This document shows, piece by piece, positions 6,363 through 16,225 of a stretch of DNA of 64,000 bases. Within the stretch, counting starts at the first letter, position 1. Every line of letters begins with the position of its first letter. The notes below the pieces were generated by a model that was not told where the DNA came from, searched no databases, and worked only from the letters and a program-made list of their open reading frames with translations. Origin of the DNA: a virus. Taxonomy: Duplodnaviria > Heunggongvirae > Uroviricota > Caudoviricetes. The DNA is taken from the IMG/VR virus record IMGVR_UViG_3300045988_158233; one strand, written 5' to 3'. Both the position numbers and the translations under genes were made by a program.

Positions 6363-7499
6363 ACCAGTATTAGTCACATACACATTGACCGAAAATGATT
6401 TAACTTCTGTATTGAAGTTGTCAGTCATTACCGCGAGGTAGGCATTCTTGGTATCTCTGAATTGCTTCAGGATGATTTGAACGTTATCGGTGCAAACAAA
6501 CGAGGTAGCCAGATTGCCTCCTTTCTCTGAAAAATCCTTCAGGAAGGTGCAGTCAACTTTGCCATCATTAGCGGTGAAGGTAGCATCATCACCCTGCCAG
6601 GTAAATGTAGCGTTAACGCCCTTATCAATGGATTTAGCAATAAGTCGCTGGGTGGCGGATTTTGTTTTGGCTTTGGAAGCCGGCGCTCGATATTTGCCGC
6701 TTTCTTTCAGTTCTGCAATGTAATCGCAGCCTCTTTTTTCTCCTTTATCGCAAGCAGTCTGATAAAGGTCGGCTGCTTTTTTATAGTCCTTTTTTACACC
6801 TTCCCCATTCTCATACATAATGCCAAGATTGGTTATGGCGTCGGCGTTTCCAAGTTCCGCTGCCTTTTTATACCACTTAACTGCTTCTGCATCATTGCGT
6901 TTAACGCCTAACCCATCATCGTATAGTATTCCTAATCCTATCATAGCTTCTGAACTGCCTTGGTCTGCCGCCTTTTTGTAATAAGTAAAAGCCTTTTTAT
7001 AATTCTTTTTAACGCCTTTACCATATTGGTAATACGCCCCAAGAACTGAAGTTGCTTTAACATACCCGGCATCAGAGGCTAGTTTGAAGTATTTAATGGC
7101 GAGTGCATGATCTACTTTACCAAGCATCCCCTTTTGATAAATAGCACCAAGATTGTTGTAGGCTCTACCTTCACGAGCATCCCCCGCAAGTTTGTAGTAC
7201 TCAACAGCTTTATTTAGGTCTTTATCTACACCCTCGCCAAATGTGTACATAACTCCAAGTGCATAATATGCTACTTTATCTCCCTTTTCTGCAGCTAGAT
7301 CAATCCACTTCTTGGCCTCAACTACATCCTTATCAAAACCATTGACACCATCAAAATAATTTGTACCTAACTCACTTTGTGCTGCGGTATCCCCTGCGGT
7401 AGCGGCTTCTATCAGCGTTTGTTTATTGTCTGCGTTAACGAATCCAGAGTTAAAAAGCAAAGTTAATGCCAGCAACGATGAAGATTTTATGTATTTCAT
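6354..7499 (-). CDS. secreted Sel1-repeat (TPR-like) protein
   Basis: N-terminal signal peptide MKYIKSSSLLALTLLFNSGFVNA, then repeated A..YY.LG..Y..G.GV.KD Sel1-type units. Confidence 0.75.
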   Translation of the reverse strand: MKYIKSSSLLALTLLFNSGFVNADNKQTLIEAATAGDTAAQSELGTNYFDGVNGFDKDVVEAKKWIDLAAEKGDKVAYYALGVMYTFGEGVDKDLNKAVEYYKLAGDAREGRAYNNLGAIYQKGMLGKVDHALAIKYFKLASDAGYVKATSVLGAYYQYGKGVKKNYKKAFTYYKKAADQGSSEAMIGLGILYDDGLGVKRNDAEAVKWYKKAAELGNADAITNLGIMYENGEGVKKDYKKAADLYQTACDKGEKRGCDYIAELKESGKYRAPASKAKTKSATQRLIAKSIDKGVNATFTWQGDDATFTANDGKVDCTFLKDFSEKGGNLATSFVCTDNVQIILKQFRDTKNAYLAVMTDNFNTEVKSFSVNVYVTNTGSN

Positions 7500-7732
7500 G
7501 TTTTTTTTTCTGTTGATATAGGATGAACAGTTTAGACGCGGCAAGCGTCAAGTGTGCGAAAAAGGGTACTTAAATTTAGTTAATATGTCAGCTTTGTTGA
7601 TTTAGTTTATGGTCGGTAAAGTTACTGGGAAACTAATAACCATAAGAAATAGTACGCCATTTAATTATTGTGGCACTGCTCGTGTTTTGATTAACTAATA
7701 CCTGCGATAAATATAAATAAAGGGAAGCCAAC

Positions 7733-8146
7733 ATGAGCAAAAATAAGCTGATTTTAACAGGAGCTTTATTGTCTTTGTTTGCTTTAGTGGGGTGTAAGCC
7801 TACAGACGAGAAGGCTATTGCTCTGGGCCAACAAGCAATTGCGGATGATATGAAAGATCCCACGTCGGTGATGTTTAGGAAAGATAAGTTTGTCAGGACT
7901 GATCATGACGATGGGAGTGTGACAGGCTTTGTGTGCGGAGAATTGAACGCCAAAAATGGCTTTGGTGCATACGTGGGCTATCACTCATATGTTGTTGAAC
8001 TCGAAATGAAACCAAAGGGCATGTTTTCGAAAGGGGTGGTATACAAAATCCTATCGAAGTCGTTGGCACCTAATGATCCTCATGACTTACAGCGTTATAA
8101 GCAGGTCTACAGAAAGATGTGCAACAGTGAGGCTGTAGCTCATTAA
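7733..8146 (+). CDS. putative lipoprotein
   Basis: Signal peptide with lipobox LVGC (MSKNKLILTGALLSLFALVGC). Confidence 0.6.
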   Translation: MSKNKLILTGALLSLFALVGCKPTDEKAIALGQQAIADDMKDPTSVMFRKDKFVRTDHDDGSVTGFVCGELNAKNGFGAYVGYHSYVVELEMKPKGMFSKGVVYKILSKSLAPNDPHDLQRYKQVYRKMCNSEAVAH

Positions 8147-11425: not shown

Positions 11426-11716
11426 ATGAGCAATTTAACTTCTTGGGAATGGTGGTTGGCCACCTATTTCTTAGCGGCCGGAGTCGCATTCGCCTTTTAC
11501 GTAGGTCAGTTAGTCGTAAAACTGTTGCTGATTAAATTTGCTAGTCATAAACGTATCGATGATGGTCTGTGGCGTCTTGGCACCCTGGTGGAAACTCGCT
11601 ACGGGCAACTTAAGGAGAACGAAACCATTACTATCCAGGCGAAACGATTCACTGCCACCATCACAAGAACACCTAGTCGTAGAGTGGCCTTGATCAAAAA
11701 AGTCACAACCGAATAA
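11426..11716 (+). CDS. small membrane protein
   Basis: 96-aa ORF with N-terminal hydrophobic helix. Confidence 0.4.
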   Translation: MSNLTSWEWWLATYFLAAGVAFAFYVGQLVVKLLLIKFASHKRIDDGLWRLGTLVETRYGQLKENETITIQAKRFTATITRTPSRRVALIKKVTTE

Positions 11717-11724
11717 AAACATCA

Positions 11725-11747
11725 CGATAAGTATTTACTTACTTATC
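11725..11747. promoter_or_regulatory. motif B palindrome (GATAAGTA-N6-TACTTATC)
   Basis: cgataagtatttacttacttatc directly after stop of 11426..11716. Confidence 0.4.
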
Positions 11748-11890
11748 TTTTATGTATAAGATGACTTTGTTTTCGTTGAGACGCGACTGTTTGAACTTAA
11801 ATACAAGTGCAAACGAAGAAGTCTATCTGGCAGTAGCCTAATAAGCCAAACACCAGCGAGGTCAGTTTCCAGCCTCGTTACCGAAATGGG

Positions 11891-12228
11891 ACACACTGAG
11901 CGAGTGTGATTGCAGAACGCAGGAGGGAACATTCATGTTCCCTCCGATGAAGTAACAGAATGGGCGGTTGGTATATTTTCAACTCCATATGACTCCCGGA
12001 TTCTTAGCCACTGACCGCCCATCCTGTTACGTCATTTTGTTCAATTATGTCGTTTATACTGGGTTAAAAAGCGGCGACGTAGCCCGGCTGGTATGGTTAG
12101 CCAGCACACAACGTTGAGGCCATTACATTTTTATCAATTCTAAGGTTCTATTCACAGAGATACCGGCGAGCGTTGATATGTAACATGTTGGGCAAACATT
12201 CAATCGGAGTAGTGGCCTCAACGTTGTG
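11891..12228 (+). other. structured non-coding region with three long inverted repeats
   Basis: 10-bp stem hairpin ggagggaaca-ttca-tgttccctcc (11922..11945); 17-bp arms at 11952..11968 / 12014..12030; 16-bp perfect arms at 12106..12122 / 12213..12228. Confidence 0.4.
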
Positions 12229-12491
12229 AAGACAGGATTGTTGTGTAGGTTTAACCACTGTTGCCATTGGTGCCTGTTTTCACAACAAATGATTCCATAC
12301 ATCACATTGTATAAATTACAAAGTAGGTGCTGTCCTCAAAAACATCATCTACTTAAAGATTTTGCCTACTATTGAGCGAAGTCGAAAGCGTCTGGCACTA
12401 ACGAAAAGTGCAAGTAGCGGTGCGTTTCCTGGCAGAAACTAAACCGTCGCGATTGGCACTGTTGAGTAATAAATACTGGCAGTGTCGAATT

Positions 12492-12566
12492 GATGGTGTA
12501 GCTCAGCGGTAGAGCAGTTGGCTGTTAACCAACTGGTCGGTGGTTCGAATCCACCCACCATCGCCA
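12492..12566 (+). tRNA. tRNA-Asn (GTT)
   Basis: Cloverleaf by eye: acceptor GATGGTG/CACCATC, anticodon loop CTGTTAA, T-loop TTCGAAT, 3' GCCA. Confidence 0.85.
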
Positions 12567-12571
12567 ATTTA

Positions 12572-12658
12572 GGAGAGTTAGTCCGTAGAGGTAGCGGGGT
12601 AGACTGTAAATCTACTGTCATTGCGACTCGGGTGGTTCGACTCCATCACTCCCCACCA
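12572..12658 (+). tRNA. tRNA-Tyr (GTA), class II
   Basis: Anticodon stem GTAGA/TCTAC with loop CTGTAAA, long variable arm, T-loop TTCGACT, 3' ACCA; one A-C mismatch in acceptor stem, D-arm imperfect. Confidence 0.65.
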
Positions 12659-12662
12659 AATT

Positions 12663-12738
12663 GCCGGTTTAGCTCAGTTGGTAGAGCGCCTGCCTTGTAA
12701 GCAGGATGTCAGCGGTTCGAGTCCGTTAACCGGCACCA
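12663..12738 (+). tRNA. tRNA-Thr (TGT)
   Basis: Acceptor GCCGGTT/AACCGGC, anticodon stem CCTGC/GCAGG with loop CTTGTAA, T-loop TTCGAGT, 3' ACCA. Confidence 0.85.
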
Positions 12739-12962
12739 ATACAACGATAAGATCATTACGGTTAATCGTCGTTCATGTGCACAATGACTGGTCGAAAGGT
12801 AGTGATCTTACCGTTGTGGTGGATTCGCAGACTGATGCGATAGCTTTCTTGGATGTTAGGGAAATGCGGCCGCAAATCTTCCCTTTCGCGAGCGGTGATC
12901 GTCCGTAGTCCTAATTGGCTGCACCGTATGCCGGAGATTCAGTACCGGCTATCACAACGGCC

Positions 12963-13049
12963 GGAGAGTAGGGAGCATGGTGCTCAAGCGGTCTTGAAAA
13001 CCGTCCCATTGCGCAAGCGATGATGGTTCGATTCCATTACTCTCCGCCA
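12963..13049 (+). tRNA. tRNA-Ser (TGA), class II
   Basis: Acceptor GGAGAGT/ACTCTCC perfect, anticodon loop CTTGAAA, long variable arm, T-loop TTCGATT, 3' GCCA. Confidence 0.75.
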
Positions 13050-13051
13050 GA

Positions 13052-13129
13052 CACAGCGTTGAGCGGTTTGGCCTTTTAATCAACTCGATTAAGACTCCGC
13101 TAACATAAACCAGACCGCTCAACGCTGTG
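13052..13129 (+). repeat. perfect 16-bp inverted repeat immediately after tRNA-Ser
   Basis: cacagcgttgagcggt ... accgctcaacgctgtg separated by 46 nt. Confidence 0.5.
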
Positions 13130-13234
13130 ATAGACAATTACGGCAGACGTTCTTAACCATAGCTTGCTAACATCCTAGCAACACTTTTTTTTCAGCGCAA
13201 AATTCAAAGGGGCTTCGGCCCCTTTTTGGCTGGG

Positions 13235-14455
13235 TTAATTAAAACCGAATGAATTAAGTTCTGCTTTGAATTTATCGACCATTTTTTCAACTTCGTTTAC
13301 AATTGCGTGAATCTCTTCGTCTTTTCTCGGATTAGAATTGAGGTCAAAATATGCCTTATATAAGGCATATTTTGACAAGCTTCCTTCAATATTTTCAGAG
13401 AAAATATTGGTACGACCATCAGTTAATAAGATATCAGCAGATCGGGAATTTAAATTATATTTATAGTAAATCTTTATTAGTCTGCTTATCTCTTTTTCAT
13501 TCTTGATTACCCTCTGTCTTTTACCAGCAATATTAAGACTCCAGCCTACATAACTAGTCAGATCGGAATTAAACTTACACACTTCCGCATCAGCTTTTTC
13601 CATATTTAGATTAATATTATTTCTCATGTGTAGCGGTAATTCGTTGAATTTTTGCTGTAAATGCTGTTTGCAGGGATTGTTGTAAGACCACAGAATTGCG
13701 AACGTAGCTCTTTGCATCCGGGTATTCAGATCGATGTTAAAGTTCTCACGATCACGAATCATTTCATCTACATAAAACTCTACAGCTTTTCGGTATTCTT
13801 TGTTAAAGATCTCGGTAACATACATTTCTAAATAATGGACTTTCGAGATTGCCTCATCAAAAAAAAGCTCACTCTCAAAGAAGTTGTATTTATTTAAGAG
13901 ATTAGAAAGTCTACTTAAGTCATAGGTTTTATTATTTTCAATATTAAGACCAAAAATGGCAATTAACAGACTTACTTTATGATTAATACTGCTACGTAAT
14001 TGAGCTATATAAATTCTCTTTTCATCTTCTGCTGATGACAGTAGATAAAACTCTTTATCTAAATAATTTAAAATTAGAATTATGTGATTTACATATTTAA
14101 TGTAAATAGGTTGTTTTGTTACATAATAATAAATGCTTTTGATGGAATTAATGCTCAATTTCGTATTAAACTCTTTGTCATTCAACAAAGTGTTATTTAC
14201 GTCCTCAAGTAATTTATCATGTTGCTCTAGTAATATTCCGTACCATTCCTTAAAAGAGGCTTTTTTCATTTCAAGAAGTGAATCTGCCGTTAATTGTGTT
14301 GCCTTCATTGCAGCTTTTGCACTATTTCTTGCCTCATAAGCAGCCCAAGCAGTAACAAAAGTAGCAAGTGAACCTATAGCCTCTTTGTATTCTTTAGCCA
14401 CATCCCAAAAAATAATAGTTATTACACACAATATGAGAATTAATATTAAAGGCAT
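13235..14455 (-). CDS. AT-rich membrane-anchored protein of unknown function (candidate accessory/exclusion gene)
   Basis: 406 aa, N-terminal TM helix LILILILCVITIIFW, rich in K/N/I/Y; markedly lower GC than neighbours; opposite strand to flanking genes. Confidence 0.6.
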   Translation of the reverse strand: MPLILILILCVITIIFWDVAKEYKEAIGSLATFVTAWAAYEARNSAKAAMKATQLTADSLLEMKKASFKEWYGILLEQHDKLLEDVNNTLLNDKEFNTKLSINSIKSIYYYVTKQPIYIKYVNHIILILNYLDKEFYLLSSAEDEKRIYIAQLRSSINHKVSLLIAIFGLNIENNKTYDLSRLSNLLNKYNFFESELFFDEAISKVHYLEMYVTEIFNKEYRKAVEFYVDEMIRDRENFNIDLNTRMQRATFAILWSYNNPCKQHLQQKFNELPLHMRNNINLNMEKADAEVCKFNSDLTSYVGWSLNIAGKRQRVIKNEKEISRLIKIYYKYNLNSRSADILLTDGRTNIFSENIEGSLSKYALYKAYFDLNSNPRKDEEIHAIVNEVEKMVDKFKAELNSFGFN

Positions 14456-14590
14456 GTTATCTATATCGTTAGTTAATTTTGAACATAAATGATACTTAGT
14501 CCACCGCTAAATTTCATCAAATTTGATAATTTTCTTGACGATCATGTCTCAAAATTATTTATACTTGGCATATTTGAGATATATAATAAT

Positions 14591-14610
14591 AGGTAATAAC
14601 ACACCTATCA
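14591..14610. promoter_or_regulatory. motif B-like palindrome ATAGGT-N8-ACCTAT
   Basis: ataggtaataacacacctat about 50 bp upstream of glutaredoxin ATG. Confidence 0.3.
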
Positions 14611-14661
14611 CATTTAAGCATCAACAAGATAAATTACGGACCCAGACCAGAAAGGAAACTA

Positions 14662-14910
14662 ATGAGAAATATACTTATCTACGGACGAGATAACTGCTCA
14701 TACTGCAAACGTGCGGTCGAGCTGGCGAAGAAACTAAAGGGACATGGCTACGGTGATTATGAGTACATCGACATCACCACTGCCGGTATCGATAAGGAAA
14801 AACTTAGCGAAATTGTTGGTAAACCGGTAGAGACTATCCCCCAGGTGCTGATCGATGGCCAGCCGATTGGCGGATACACAGAACTGGCTGCATACGTCAG
14901 CACCCTCTGA
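14662..14910 (+). CDS. glutaredoxin (NrdH/NrdC-like redoxin)
   Basis: 82 aa with CSYC active-site motif near N-terminus and thioredoxin-fold length; sits with RNR genes in element. Confidence 0.75.
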   Translation: MRNILIYGRDNCSYCKRAVELAKKLKGHGYGDYEYIDITTAGIDKEKLSEIVGKPVETIPQVLIDGQPIGGYTELAAYVSTL

Positions 14911-14916
14911 TTTTAA

Positions 14917-14938
14917 CGGCTCACAGGAGCCGTTTTTT
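14917..14938 (+). terminator. rho-independent terminator
   Basis: cggctc-acag-gagccg followed by TTTTTT. Confidence 0.6.
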
Positions 14939-15075
14939 ATTCCCACCAAACTCACACCTGTTTCCATTAAAATTCAAAAAACAACGCCTGAATGATTCCA
15001 TACCTACTATGTATGGAATCATTGCTGAAAATGAGTTACTTTTACTCTTGATCCTATAAGAATCTATGCCTAATA

Positions 15076-15095
15076 TACTGTTTACTTATACAGTG
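15076..15095. promoter_or_regulatory. LexA box (SOS operator) upstream of integrase
   Basis: TACTGT-ttacttat-ACAGTG fits CTGT-N8-ACAG consensus; about 27 bp upstream of int start. Confidence 0.6.
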
Positions 15096-15121
15096 CATCG
15101 GCGTAACTCGGTGATTGTCAT

Positions 15122-16225
15122 ATGAAAAATAGCTTTGACAGAGCACGCGCTGCGGAGAACACCTCAAAAGAGGCGATAGAGTATCTCGAAAGAGCATCTC
15201 AAATGCAGGCCGTTATGATCTCCCAGGTCAGCAATGACATGAGATTCTCGGACGCATTCATGTTATTCACTCGCTTATCTCTGCTGATAACCAGACGTCG
15301 GCCAGAGATCGCTGTTCATTGTATTTTGATACATGTTTTGCCGCACATTGCCGATGTAAAAGTAAGTGACATTAATAGGTTCATGGTGAACCAACTGGTC
15401 AACCCACTAATACTGGATGGCAAAATTGTTATGGGCCGCCGCGTTTTCTCTCTGATGAAGCAGTTCCTTAGCTGGTGCGCCTTCCAGGGGATGATAGACG
15501 TGTCACCGTTAAACGATATGTCACTTAACAAAGTTGCCGGTGGCGCAAAGCCCACACCTCGCGAGCGGAAGCTGACCGACGCAGAGGTATGGGTGTTCTG
15601 GAATATATGGGACTACTTCAATGTGTGTGCTGGTACAAAATGGGCGGCCAGGCTGTGTCTTGTATCAGCAAGACGACCTGACGAAGTACTGCGGGCTAAA
15701 AAAAGTGAGTTCAATCTTAAGCGTGGGGTTTGGAATCAAGGCAAGAGGAACAAATCTGCCCGTGAGCATTCTCTGCCTTTAAGCTCATTAATGCGCACTT
15801 GTATTGAAGAGTTGTTCGAATATGGTAAAGACAGCCAGTGGCTCGTGCCTTCGAATAAAAAAATCGGGAAAGACCTTCCTATGTCTAAAGTGGCAATAGC
15901 CCAGGCATTACGTCGTATTCTGGAACGACCAGAACTGATGGAGCTTGAGCCATTTACACCCCGAGATTTGCGCCGTACTGCGCGTAGTTACTTCCCAGCA
16001 TTAGGCATAAGCCAGGAGGTATCACGTAAAATCATGAACCACAGTCTTGAGGGGATAGATCGGGTCTACGACCGGCACGATTATATGGACGAGATGCGAG
16101 ACGCCTTAGAAAGTTTCTCGACGTACATCGCATCAATCGTAGAGCAACCGGATTTAGACGAAATTGACCACAAATTTAAGGGAGATCGTCTATCAACAGA
16201 GCTTATTCGTGTAAATTTTTCATAG
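15122..16225 (+). CDS. tyrosine recombinase / integrase (P4-type)
   Basis: Catalytic-region motifs LVSARRPDEV (R), HSLPL, TPRDLRRTARS, and C-terminal RVYDRHDYMDEMRDAL with tyrosine nucleophile. Confidence 0.75.
   Translation: MKNSFDRARAAENTSKEAIEYLERASQMQAVMISQVSNDMRFSDAFMLFTRLSLLITRRRPEIAVHCILIHVLPHIADVKVSDINRFMVNQLVNPLILDGKIVMGRRVFSLMKQFLSWCAFQGMIDVSPLNDMSLNKVAGGAKPTPRERKLTDAEVWVFWNIWDYFNVCAGTKWAARLCLVSARRPDEVLRAKKSEFNLKRGVWNQGKRNKSAREHSLPLSSLMRTCIEELFEYGKDSQWLVPSNKKIGKDLPMSKVAIAQALRRILERPELMELEPFTPRDLRRTARSYFPALGISQEVSRKIMNHSLEGIDRVYDRHDYMDEMRDALESFSTYIASIVEQPDLDEIDHKFKGDRLSTELIRVNFS

Follow-up and report, generated by a model that had tools for sequence, protein, structure and literature searches.

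What kind of gene lies in the most AT-rich part of a phage genome, next to its transfer RNA (tRNA) genes? The question was raised by a preliminary description of the IMG/VR virus record IMGVR_UViG_3300045988_158233 (Caudoviricetes), made from the letters of a 64,000-nucleotide stretch that we call the window. A minus-strand gene of 406 amino acids (aa) was noticed there between a tRNA cluster and the glutaredoxin and integrase genes, and it was suspected to be cargo, perhaps an abortive-infection or superinfection-exclusion factor. The answer that we favor, with a probability of about 0.6, is an anti-phage gene of the AbiC/AbiP (putAbiC) type, a single-component system whose product is predicted to be anchored in the inner membrane and which an SSU5-type phage-plasmid carries as an accessory cassette. 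The gene is real, it has a cassette structure and an accessory distribution, its product is homologous to putAbiC proteins, and its pattern of evolution sets it apart from its neighbors.

A large protein search recovered 75 homologous clusters, all of them from Enterobacterales and mostly on contigs of 105-115 kb, and the ratio of nonsynonymous to synonymous divergence (dN/dS, or omega) of the gene between genera is 0.14-0.22. Hence, the AT-rich open reading frame (ORF) is a real gene and not a chance reading frame. None of the 75 close clusters carries a functional name ("hypothetical protein" at most), and their precomputed Pfam field is empty throughout. The interval first given for the gene, 13235-14650, stands in part: the ORF call covers 13235-14455, and the remaining 14456-14650 is upstream intergenic region. 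The other features that had been noted agree with our data. The GC content is 0.312 in the ORF (0.287 at third codon positions) compared with 0.454 in the window, and is at least 0.36 in every other 1.2-kb stretch of it; abundant residues of the protein are L (11.3%), I (9.4%), N (9.4%), K (8.9%), E (8.1%) and Y (6.2%); and the gene does lie between the tRNA cluster and the genes for glutaredoxin (grxA) and a tyrosine integrase.

The evidence for homology comes from profile comparisons that involved three alignments: A1, made of 36 close members; A2, made of the window protein plus 53 distant relatives; and A3, the lactococcal AbiC family. The AbiC reference was a homolog encoded on Lactococcus lactis plasmid p275A, which matches PADLOC AbiC at 4e-133 and also matches PADLOC AbiP. 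When 1.84 billion representative proteins were searched with the A1 profile, 87 were found, including full-length relatives of 420-500 aa with E-values down to 2e-36. All but one of the distant full-length relatives (52/53) match the putAbiC domain PF16872, and ten that were checked singly scored 31-37 bits against a cut-off of 22. PADLOC AbiC is matched by 9/53 and PADLOC AbiP by 6/53, and several carry the NCBI name "putative phage abortive infection protein". In the opposite direction, a profile built from the 53 distant relatives alone scores the window protein at 136 bits, end to end. Homology to proteins that pass PF16872 is thus supported over the domain region, although for many distant relatives the alignment is limited to the N-terminal ~200-320 positions. 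A comparison of A2 with A3 by hhalign extends the link to lactococcal AbiC itself (probability 93.3%, E 2.8e-7) over 60 columns only, which pair window residues 116-175 with AbiC residues 190-249. At the sequence level, these results speak for the initial suggestion of an abortive-infection or exclusion-type factor. Among viral protein families, phrog_18168 of PHROGs, of unknown function, matches the protein at 1e-130; a profile search of PDB sequences gave chance matches only. A 2026 paper on "Abi_C" and SadR (PMC13590631) was set aside as it concerns the HEPN domain of AbiJ, not AbiC or putAbiC.

The architecture of the protein is that of the AbiC/P group: a single gene, one or two N-terminal transmembrane (TM) helices and a helical extramembrane domain. 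The preliminary description had recognized one TM helix. That helix is well supported, but a second conserved helix at about residues 26-42 makes two probable. The second helix bears an invariant stripe of small residues in A1 (T32, T35, A36, A39, A42), and its T/A pattern persists in relatives that are only ~20% identical; the stripe may point to oligomerization. Four residues of the second helix are missing in the window allele, in the AP026520 allele and in the Salmonella P0002 clade, and are present in most family members; the hydrophobic stretch is therefore only about 15 residues long. The loop between the two hydrophobic helices has a net charge of -1/-2, and the sequence after the second helix has a charge of +2. 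Because of this distribution, we suggest a hairpin with both termini inside, which would leave the body in the cytoplasm. Neither a signal peptide nor a periplasmic domain signature was found in the protein.

Structure prediction with AlphaFold2 (AF2), using A1, yielded an almost wholly alpha-helical model with a predicted local distance difference test (pLDDT) score of 82.9 and a predicted template modeling score of 0.75. Residues 60-406 are mostly above 90, a small beta element appears at residues 306-352, and confidence is low at residues 14-39. Conservation is uneven along the chain: column conservation is 0.82-0.85 at residues 21-80 and 0.48-0.55 at residues 236-406, and F68, L75, L76, Q78 and H79 are kept even in distant relatives.

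Evolutionary rates follow the same gradient. Omega is 0.05-0.17 in residues 1-80, 0.09-0.15 in residues 81-230 and 0.20-0.39 in residues 231-406; in the neighboring ligase gene it is 0.02-0.07. When the window was compared with AP026520, to which it is ~98% identical over 8 kb, the gene showed 18 nonsynonymous and 5 synonymous codon changes, while four flanking genes together showed 10 and 47, respectively (Fisher p = 5e-7). Not one of the 18 replacements falls in residues 13-94. Either diversifying selection or locally relaxed constraint may explain the excess of replacements between close alleles. An initial reading of the ~75% nucleotide identity between genera as co-divergence of gene and backbone was abandoned: strict co-divergence is unsupported because synonymous sites of the ligase are saturated (synonymous divergence, dS, > 2) while dS of the gene is ~1. 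The gap could stem from AT codon bias or from later exchange between sublineages.

The carrier was identified by sequence comparison. The window matches E. coli phage-plasmids of the SSU5/pHCM2 type, of ~108 kb; Escherichia phages CMS-2020a and Cyrano are 95-99% identical to this region, and Salmonella phage SSU5 and Klebsiella relatives are linked to the window through the ligase. Homology to the Cyrano and CMS-2020a backbone ends at 13227-13230, inside a terminator hairpin, and restarts at 14675-14676, 14 nt into grxA. The segment between these sharp edges (variable slot 1) is a swappable cassette of ~1.45 kb that contains the gene and its upstream region; the ORF call detected no second conserved ORF and no antitoxin partner in it. 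In Cyrano, the slot contains the backbone gene gp49 only. In CMS-2020a (CP053388, L006, 2329-3237, minus strand), it holds an unrelated K/N/I-rich ORF of 302 aa with a GC content of 0.29 and no Pfam or PADLOC match. An R-x4-H motif in that ORF, LLRHTIVHNSGRF, recalls those of HEPN RNases; the ORF is possibly a second defense candidate. In CP054387 (L007, 2643-4556, plus strand), the slot and grxA are both replaced by the gene for a 637-aa protein with DUF1737, SASA sialate-O-acetylesterase and DUF6645 domains, which could be a surface-polysaccharide-modifying or receptor-related conversion gene. Orthologs with 67-68% amino acid and 75-76% nucleotide identity occupy the same position in Salmonella AnCo3, Klebsiella p205880-4 and Enterobacter p4-20710, where phoH, gp49 and grxA follow in that order, and alleles with 33-37% identity likewise lie between ligase and integrase in SSU5-type contigs.

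Within the lineage, the gene is accessory. In PLSDB, 141 plasmids encode a homolog (120/141 are non-mobilizable) and ~686 carry an SSU5-type ligase at >=80% identity, so that roughly a fifth of the lineage possesses the gene. Of 5,426 E. coli genomes, all complete, 208 possess the backbone flank, always on plasmids; the window allele (>=99.9% identity) is found in only 9, on plasmids of 108-116 kb from chicken and pig isolates, and an allele with ~75% identity in another 8. A tblastn search of a phage collection detected no homolog; SSU5, Cyrano, CMS-2020a and the SSU5-like Klebsiella phages all lack the gene. A one-off recent insertion can be rejected, since SSU5-supergroup elements from Escherichia, Salmonella, Klebsiella, Enterobacter and Citrobacter have alleles of 33-100% identity in the same region.

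Relatives are also found in other kinds of mobile DNA. P0049 (55% identity) lies on the opposite strand of a P2-like prophage, where it is flanked by baseplate gene V and tail gene S; this is the position of P2 orf30. P0064 (45%) belongs to a lambdoid prophage, with the replication genes on one side and the RusA/Q region on the other. In both prophages, the gene stands as a lone, AT-rich cassette against the direction of its surroundings. P0045 (58%) is located in a chromosomal island of Pectobacterium, close to an AAA_15/AAA_21 ATPase. Two more distant, putAbiC-positive relatives are P0095, whose neighbor in a P1-like phage-plasmid (contig L014, 10001-11317, SRR27257834) is the ddrB/darA anti-restriction operon, and P0137, which shares its part of a chromosomal island with AbiGi and a caspase-WD40 gene. 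Two unrelated groups of phage-plasmids thus carry the putAbiC superfamily. The GC content of these five relatives is 0.32-0.36 in surroundings of 0.46-0.55. Accessory distribution, location in hotspots or islands and a protein evolution faster than that of neighboring genes, all found here, are the marks of mobile defense cargo. The early suspicion of cargo is therefore well founded: the edges are sharp, the occupants of the slot are swapped for unrelated genes or for backbone only, and the family recurs in unrelated phages and islands.

The coordinates of the gene, its protein segments and the adjacent features are collected in Table 1.

Table 1. Position of the AT-rich gene, segments of its product and neighboring features in the 64-kb window
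Feature	Position	Strand	Basis and remarks
ORF of 406 aa, assigned from profiles as a divergent putAbiC (AbiC/AbiP-like) superfamily member forming a single-gene cassette	13235..14455	-	ORF call; ATG start
TM1, residues 2-17	14405..14452	-	Best Kyte-Doolittle 19-mer 2.7; hydrophobic in 36/36 aligned members
Probable TM2, residues 26-42	14330..14380	-	Moderately hydrophobic; Kyte-Doolittle 1.26 here, 1.48 in the consensus
Most conserved segment, residues 41-91	14183..14335	-	Juxtamembrane helix EARxSAKAAMKAT, then SFKEW..LLEQH motif
Equivalent of PF16872 core, residues 116-175	13931..14110	-	hhalign of A2 vs A3; PF16872 matches the same region of relatives
Fast-evolving C-terminal region, residues 231-406	13238..13765	-	Omega 0.20-0.39; candidate specificity or sensor module
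Predicted sigma-70-type promoter of the 406-aa gene	14489..14517	-	Consensus scan; -35 ATGAAA, 17 bp, -10 TATCAT (14517->14489)
Variable slot 1, swappable cassette	13231..14675		BLAST boundaries vs L001, L006 and L007
Bidirectional terminator hairpin	13201..13232	both	GGGGC-loop-GCCCC, T-runs on both strands; directly after the ORF stop
tRNA-Asn/Tyr/Thr/Ser cluster	12492-13049	+	tRNA calls
grxA	14662-14910		Neighbor of the 406-aa ORF
Tyrosine integrase	15122-16225		Beyond grxA; a repressor-like gene also lies in that stretch

The gene had been credited with a promoter region of its own, and a candidate -35/-10 pair fits that view. Its hexamers ([A/C]TGAAA, 17 bp, TATCAT) and the leader are kept in the orthologs of E. 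coli, Salmonella, Klebsiella and Enterobacter, which share the predicted promoter while their sequences further upstream are unrelated. The consensus scan found 10 promoter-like sites in the region around the gene, not above the 8.8 expected by chance; conservation across orthologs is the sole argument for the site proposed. The terminator hairpin folds with -19.2 kcal/mol (z -3.9) on one strand and -20.4 kcal/mol (z -3.2) on the other. It is part of the conserved backbone, and the cassette has its left boundary there. An Rfam scan of 11500-15500 matched only tRNAs. The tRNA-Ser(tga) at 12963-13049 was called by ARAGORN yet falls below the Rfam gathering score for tRNA, while the other three tRNAs were found. 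Related elements (L001-L007) differ in their number of tRNAs: the E. coli group has four, Cyrano has three, and the elements of Salmonella, Klebsiella and Enterobacter have one or two.

Between grxA and the integrase there is another variable slot, which spans 14911-14990 in the window and is empty there except for the grxA terminator (14915-14934). Its occupants in relatives (L006 3752-4780, L004 826-2286, L001 4341-4895) are a 202-aa ORF with a YafO toxin (PF13957), a colicin-E1-type immunity gene or a 184-aa ORF. At 14991-15023, ~100 bp upstream of the integrase, there is a 33-bp site made of perfect 13-bp inverted arms (AATGATTCCATAC / GTATGGAATCATT) and a 7-bp asymmetric spacer. The site is conserved in every relative examined, and CMS-2020a backbone homology restarts exactly there. 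Its lox/dif-like architecture suggests a resolution or recombination site of the integrase. In another SSU5-type contig (L017, SRR24127863), a gene for an outer-membrane protein of the Ail/Lom family (7345-7935) adjoins an allele of the AbiC/P-like gene with 37% identity, and is further conversion cargo of the same region.

How closely does the protein resemble systems that have been studied? The nearest named one is AbiC of L. lactis plasmid pTN20 (PF16872; PDLC02343), also a single gene whose product has two N-terminal TM helices and a helical body (PMC13064643). The two share a putAbiC core of ~60-80 residues at the level of family profiles, a high AT content and a location on mobile elements. 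They differ in that the window protein has no direct match to the AbiC hidden Markov model (HMM), is longer (406 aa vs ~340) and cannot be aligned outside the core. Furthermore, the host is Gram-negative and the carrier is a phage-plasmid. The phenotype described for AbiC is a lowered production of major capsid protein (PMC13064643). AbiP (L. lactis pIL2614; grouped as "AbiC/P") is likewise a membrane-anchored, helical, single-gene product, and six of our distant relatives match its PADLOC model. The window protein has no direct AbiP HMM match. AbiP has one TM helix and a demonstrated RNA/single-stranded DNA (ssDNA)-binding domain. It requires its anchor, blocks the switch from early to late transcription and is triggered by the phage major tail protein (PMC13064643).

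A third comparison is offered by Pdp(Sau), an AbiP-like protein encoded by a Staphylococcus aureus prophage, which is anchored by an N-terminal TM helix and predicted to fold like AbiP (PMC10127798). Pdp(Sau) aborts infection by Kayvirus with membrane depolarization, and so protects the lysogen from unrelated lytic phages, an example of benefit to a temperate element (PMC10127798). It is smaller (278 aa), has one TM helix, and its presumed kinship with the window protein runs only through AbiP. The closest full-length homologs are enterobacterial "putative phage abortive infection proteins" of 420-500 aa such as WP_104212255 (Pectobacterium) and WP_414160505 (Serratia). They have the same N-terminal helices, the LLEQH and core motifs, and phage or island contexts; unlike the window clade, to which they are ~20% identical, they pass PF16872, and their C-terminal regions often cannot be aligned with it. 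A literature search found no experimental study of these relatives. In its setting, the gene resembles the occupants of the P2 and P4 defense hotspots, where fixed flanks enclose interchangeable AT-rich cassettes, often on the opposite strand (PMC9122126, PMC13586616); the present slot differs in belonging to SSU5-type phage-plasmids. The defense-hotspot papers that were checked mention neither SSU5 nor this protein family, the papers searched yielded no description of the slot, and no publication on the family was found. In 1,227 SSU5-group contigs surveyed with DefenseFinder, no AbiC-type gene is listed.

Several observations weigh against the assignment to the AbiC/P type, or restrict what may be concluded from it. 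An hmmscan of the protein against Pfam (E<=1) returned only DUF4381, at E=0.11; the protein fails the 22-bit gathering score of PF16872, and scans with PADLOC (AbiC and AbiP included) and NCBIfam gave no match. By hhalign, A1 has no significant similarity to A3 (probability 0.7%) nor to a single lactococcal AbiC sequence. Since only the broader alignment reaches the AbiC family, the link to AbiC is transitive and confined to a core of ~60 residues. Membership in AbiC sensu stricto (PDLC02343) is thus not sustained, as there is neither an HMM match nor profile similarity over most of the protein. With A1 unlike A3, the A2-A3 match limited to the core and the reverse profile match running the full length, the profiles place the protein in a distinct enterobacterial clade of the putAbiC superfamily, and not as an AbiC ortholog. 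The fold gives no help, since neither PDB nor the viral models of BFVD contain a structure that resembles the AF2 model. The topology is uncertain because AF2 confidence is low around the helices and the second helix is marginally hydrophobic and shortened. An arms race need not be the cause of the excess of replacements, which relaxed constraint could also produce. On the functional side, the mechanisms of AbiC and AbiP appear to differ (PMC13064643). In addition, an AbiC-like lactococcal gene with 38% identity gave no resistance in a screen (PMC11381338); family membership is therefore no guarantee of activity.

Four other explanations were considered, and we regard each of them as less likely than an anti-phage protein of the AbiC/P type. 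Superinfection exclusion, in which the protein, seated in the inner membrane, would stop incoming phages (possibly SSU5-like relatives) at DNA entry or at an early envelope step and the infected cell would survive, is unlikely, though the least so of the four. A membrane anchor, a prophage-like carrier, a predicted promoter of its own and a position like those of morons in temperate phages all suit it, and an exclusion gene would be expected to show the same accessory, fast-evolving pattern. However, homology could be detected to the AbiC/AbiP group alone, in which the members that have been studied take effect once DNA has entered, and no similarity to known superinfection-exclusion families was found in Pfam, PADLOC or PHROGs. 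Typical injection blockers are also much smaller than the ~360-residue, probably cytoplasmic body of this protein. A role in lysogenic conversion of another kind (immunity to a bacteriocin or contact-dependent toxin, envelope stress, fitness in host colonization) has a small chance of being correct. The presence of colicin-E1-type immunity, sialate-O-acetylesterase-like and Ail/Lom genes in neighboring variable slots of relatives makes it conceivable, and the fold offers no functional clue; it is opposed by the homology to putAbiC-domain proteins, by relatives that sit beside AbiGi, AAA_15/21 ATPases and the darA/ddrB region, and by a charge distribution that suggests a cytoplasmic body, with no signal peptide or periplasmic signature.

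A function in the biology of the element itself, such as the timing of lysis, the tethering of replication or partition to the membrane, or the killing of hosts that lose the plasmid, has a slimmer chance still. One might think of it for a membrane protein encoded near the integrase and repressor region of a plasmid-prophage, with toxin modules of the YafO type in the neighboring slot of relatives. Nevertheless, ~80% of SSU5-type plasmids do without the gene, as do SSU5, Cyrano and CMS-2020a, which are deposited as phage records; unrelated genes take its place in the slot; and the family is found in P2-like, lambdoid and P1-like elements with different life-cycle machinery as well as in non-phage islands. 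A partner (antitoxin) ORF is absent from the cassette. Least probable of all, and hardly to be entertained, is a decaying or silent remnant, retained as silenced, harmless AT-rich DNA. The very low GC content, the lack of an obvious Shine-Dalgarno sequence and an omega of ~1 between the two closest alleles would agree with decay, but the full-length ORF is intact in 75 clusters from many genera, long-term omega is 0.14-0.22, promoter and leader are conserved, and the N-terminal 80 residues are almost invariant.

If the protein is indeed a member of the AbiC/P type, a course of events can be proposed by analogy. Transcription would be constitutive, from the conserved promoter of the gene and independent of the oppositely oriented backbone genes; the protein would therefore probably be made while the element resides as a plasmid-prophage. 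The N-terminal hairpin (TM1 and the second helix, rich in small residues) would serve as the inner-membrane anchor, with the helical body of ~360 residues in the cytoplasm. A product of an infecting, unrelated phage, as the major tail protein is for AbiP, would activate the protein, and phage development would be blocked after DNA entry. Relatives suggest several possible routes: lowered capsid protein as with AbiC, nucleic acid binding and failure of the early-to-late switch as with AbiP, or depolarization as with Pdp(Sau). Judged by the conservation pattern only, the conserved membrane-proximal part is the likely effector or oligomerization module and the fast-evolving C-terminal third the likely recognition module. 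The result would be a membrane-anchored sensor-effector that shields the host of the phage-plasmid from other phages, in the manner of AbiC, AbiP and Pdp(Sau).

A bolder proposal, which we put forward as a tentative speculation and consider rather doubtful, is that the post-tRNA slot of SSU5-type phage-plasmids is an undescribed defense hotspot, and that a distinct enterobacterial clade of modular AbiC/P-like sensor-effectors is its most frequent occupant. The near-invariant hairpin and juxtamembrane helix would damage the membrane or sequester nucleic acid, the diversifying C-terminus would recognize structural proteins of invading phages, and alleles with 33-100% identity would differ in phage specificity. 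If this were true, other cassettes of the slot, such as the 302-aa ORF of CMS-2020a, would also be new defense genes.

Prophage-borne single-gene Abi proteins and cassette hotspots are already established; what is newly seen here is an unannotated, divergent member in a slot of SSU5-type elements. The gene is accordingly a good but unsurprising candidate for experiment. Clinical E. coli, Shigella, Salmonella Typhi, Klebsiella and Enterobacter commonly carry phage-plasmids of the SSU5/pHCM2 type, which are frequently passed over as cryptic. If the AbiC/P-type assignment is correct, about one fifth of these phage-plasmids would gain an anti-phage function that the Pfam, PADLOC and NCBIfam models miss, with a bearing on host range in phage therapy and on the persistence of these elements. 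The AbiC/AbiP group, in turn, would gain a tractable member in E. coli, whose natural allelic variation suits the mapping of trigger specificity by domain swaps.

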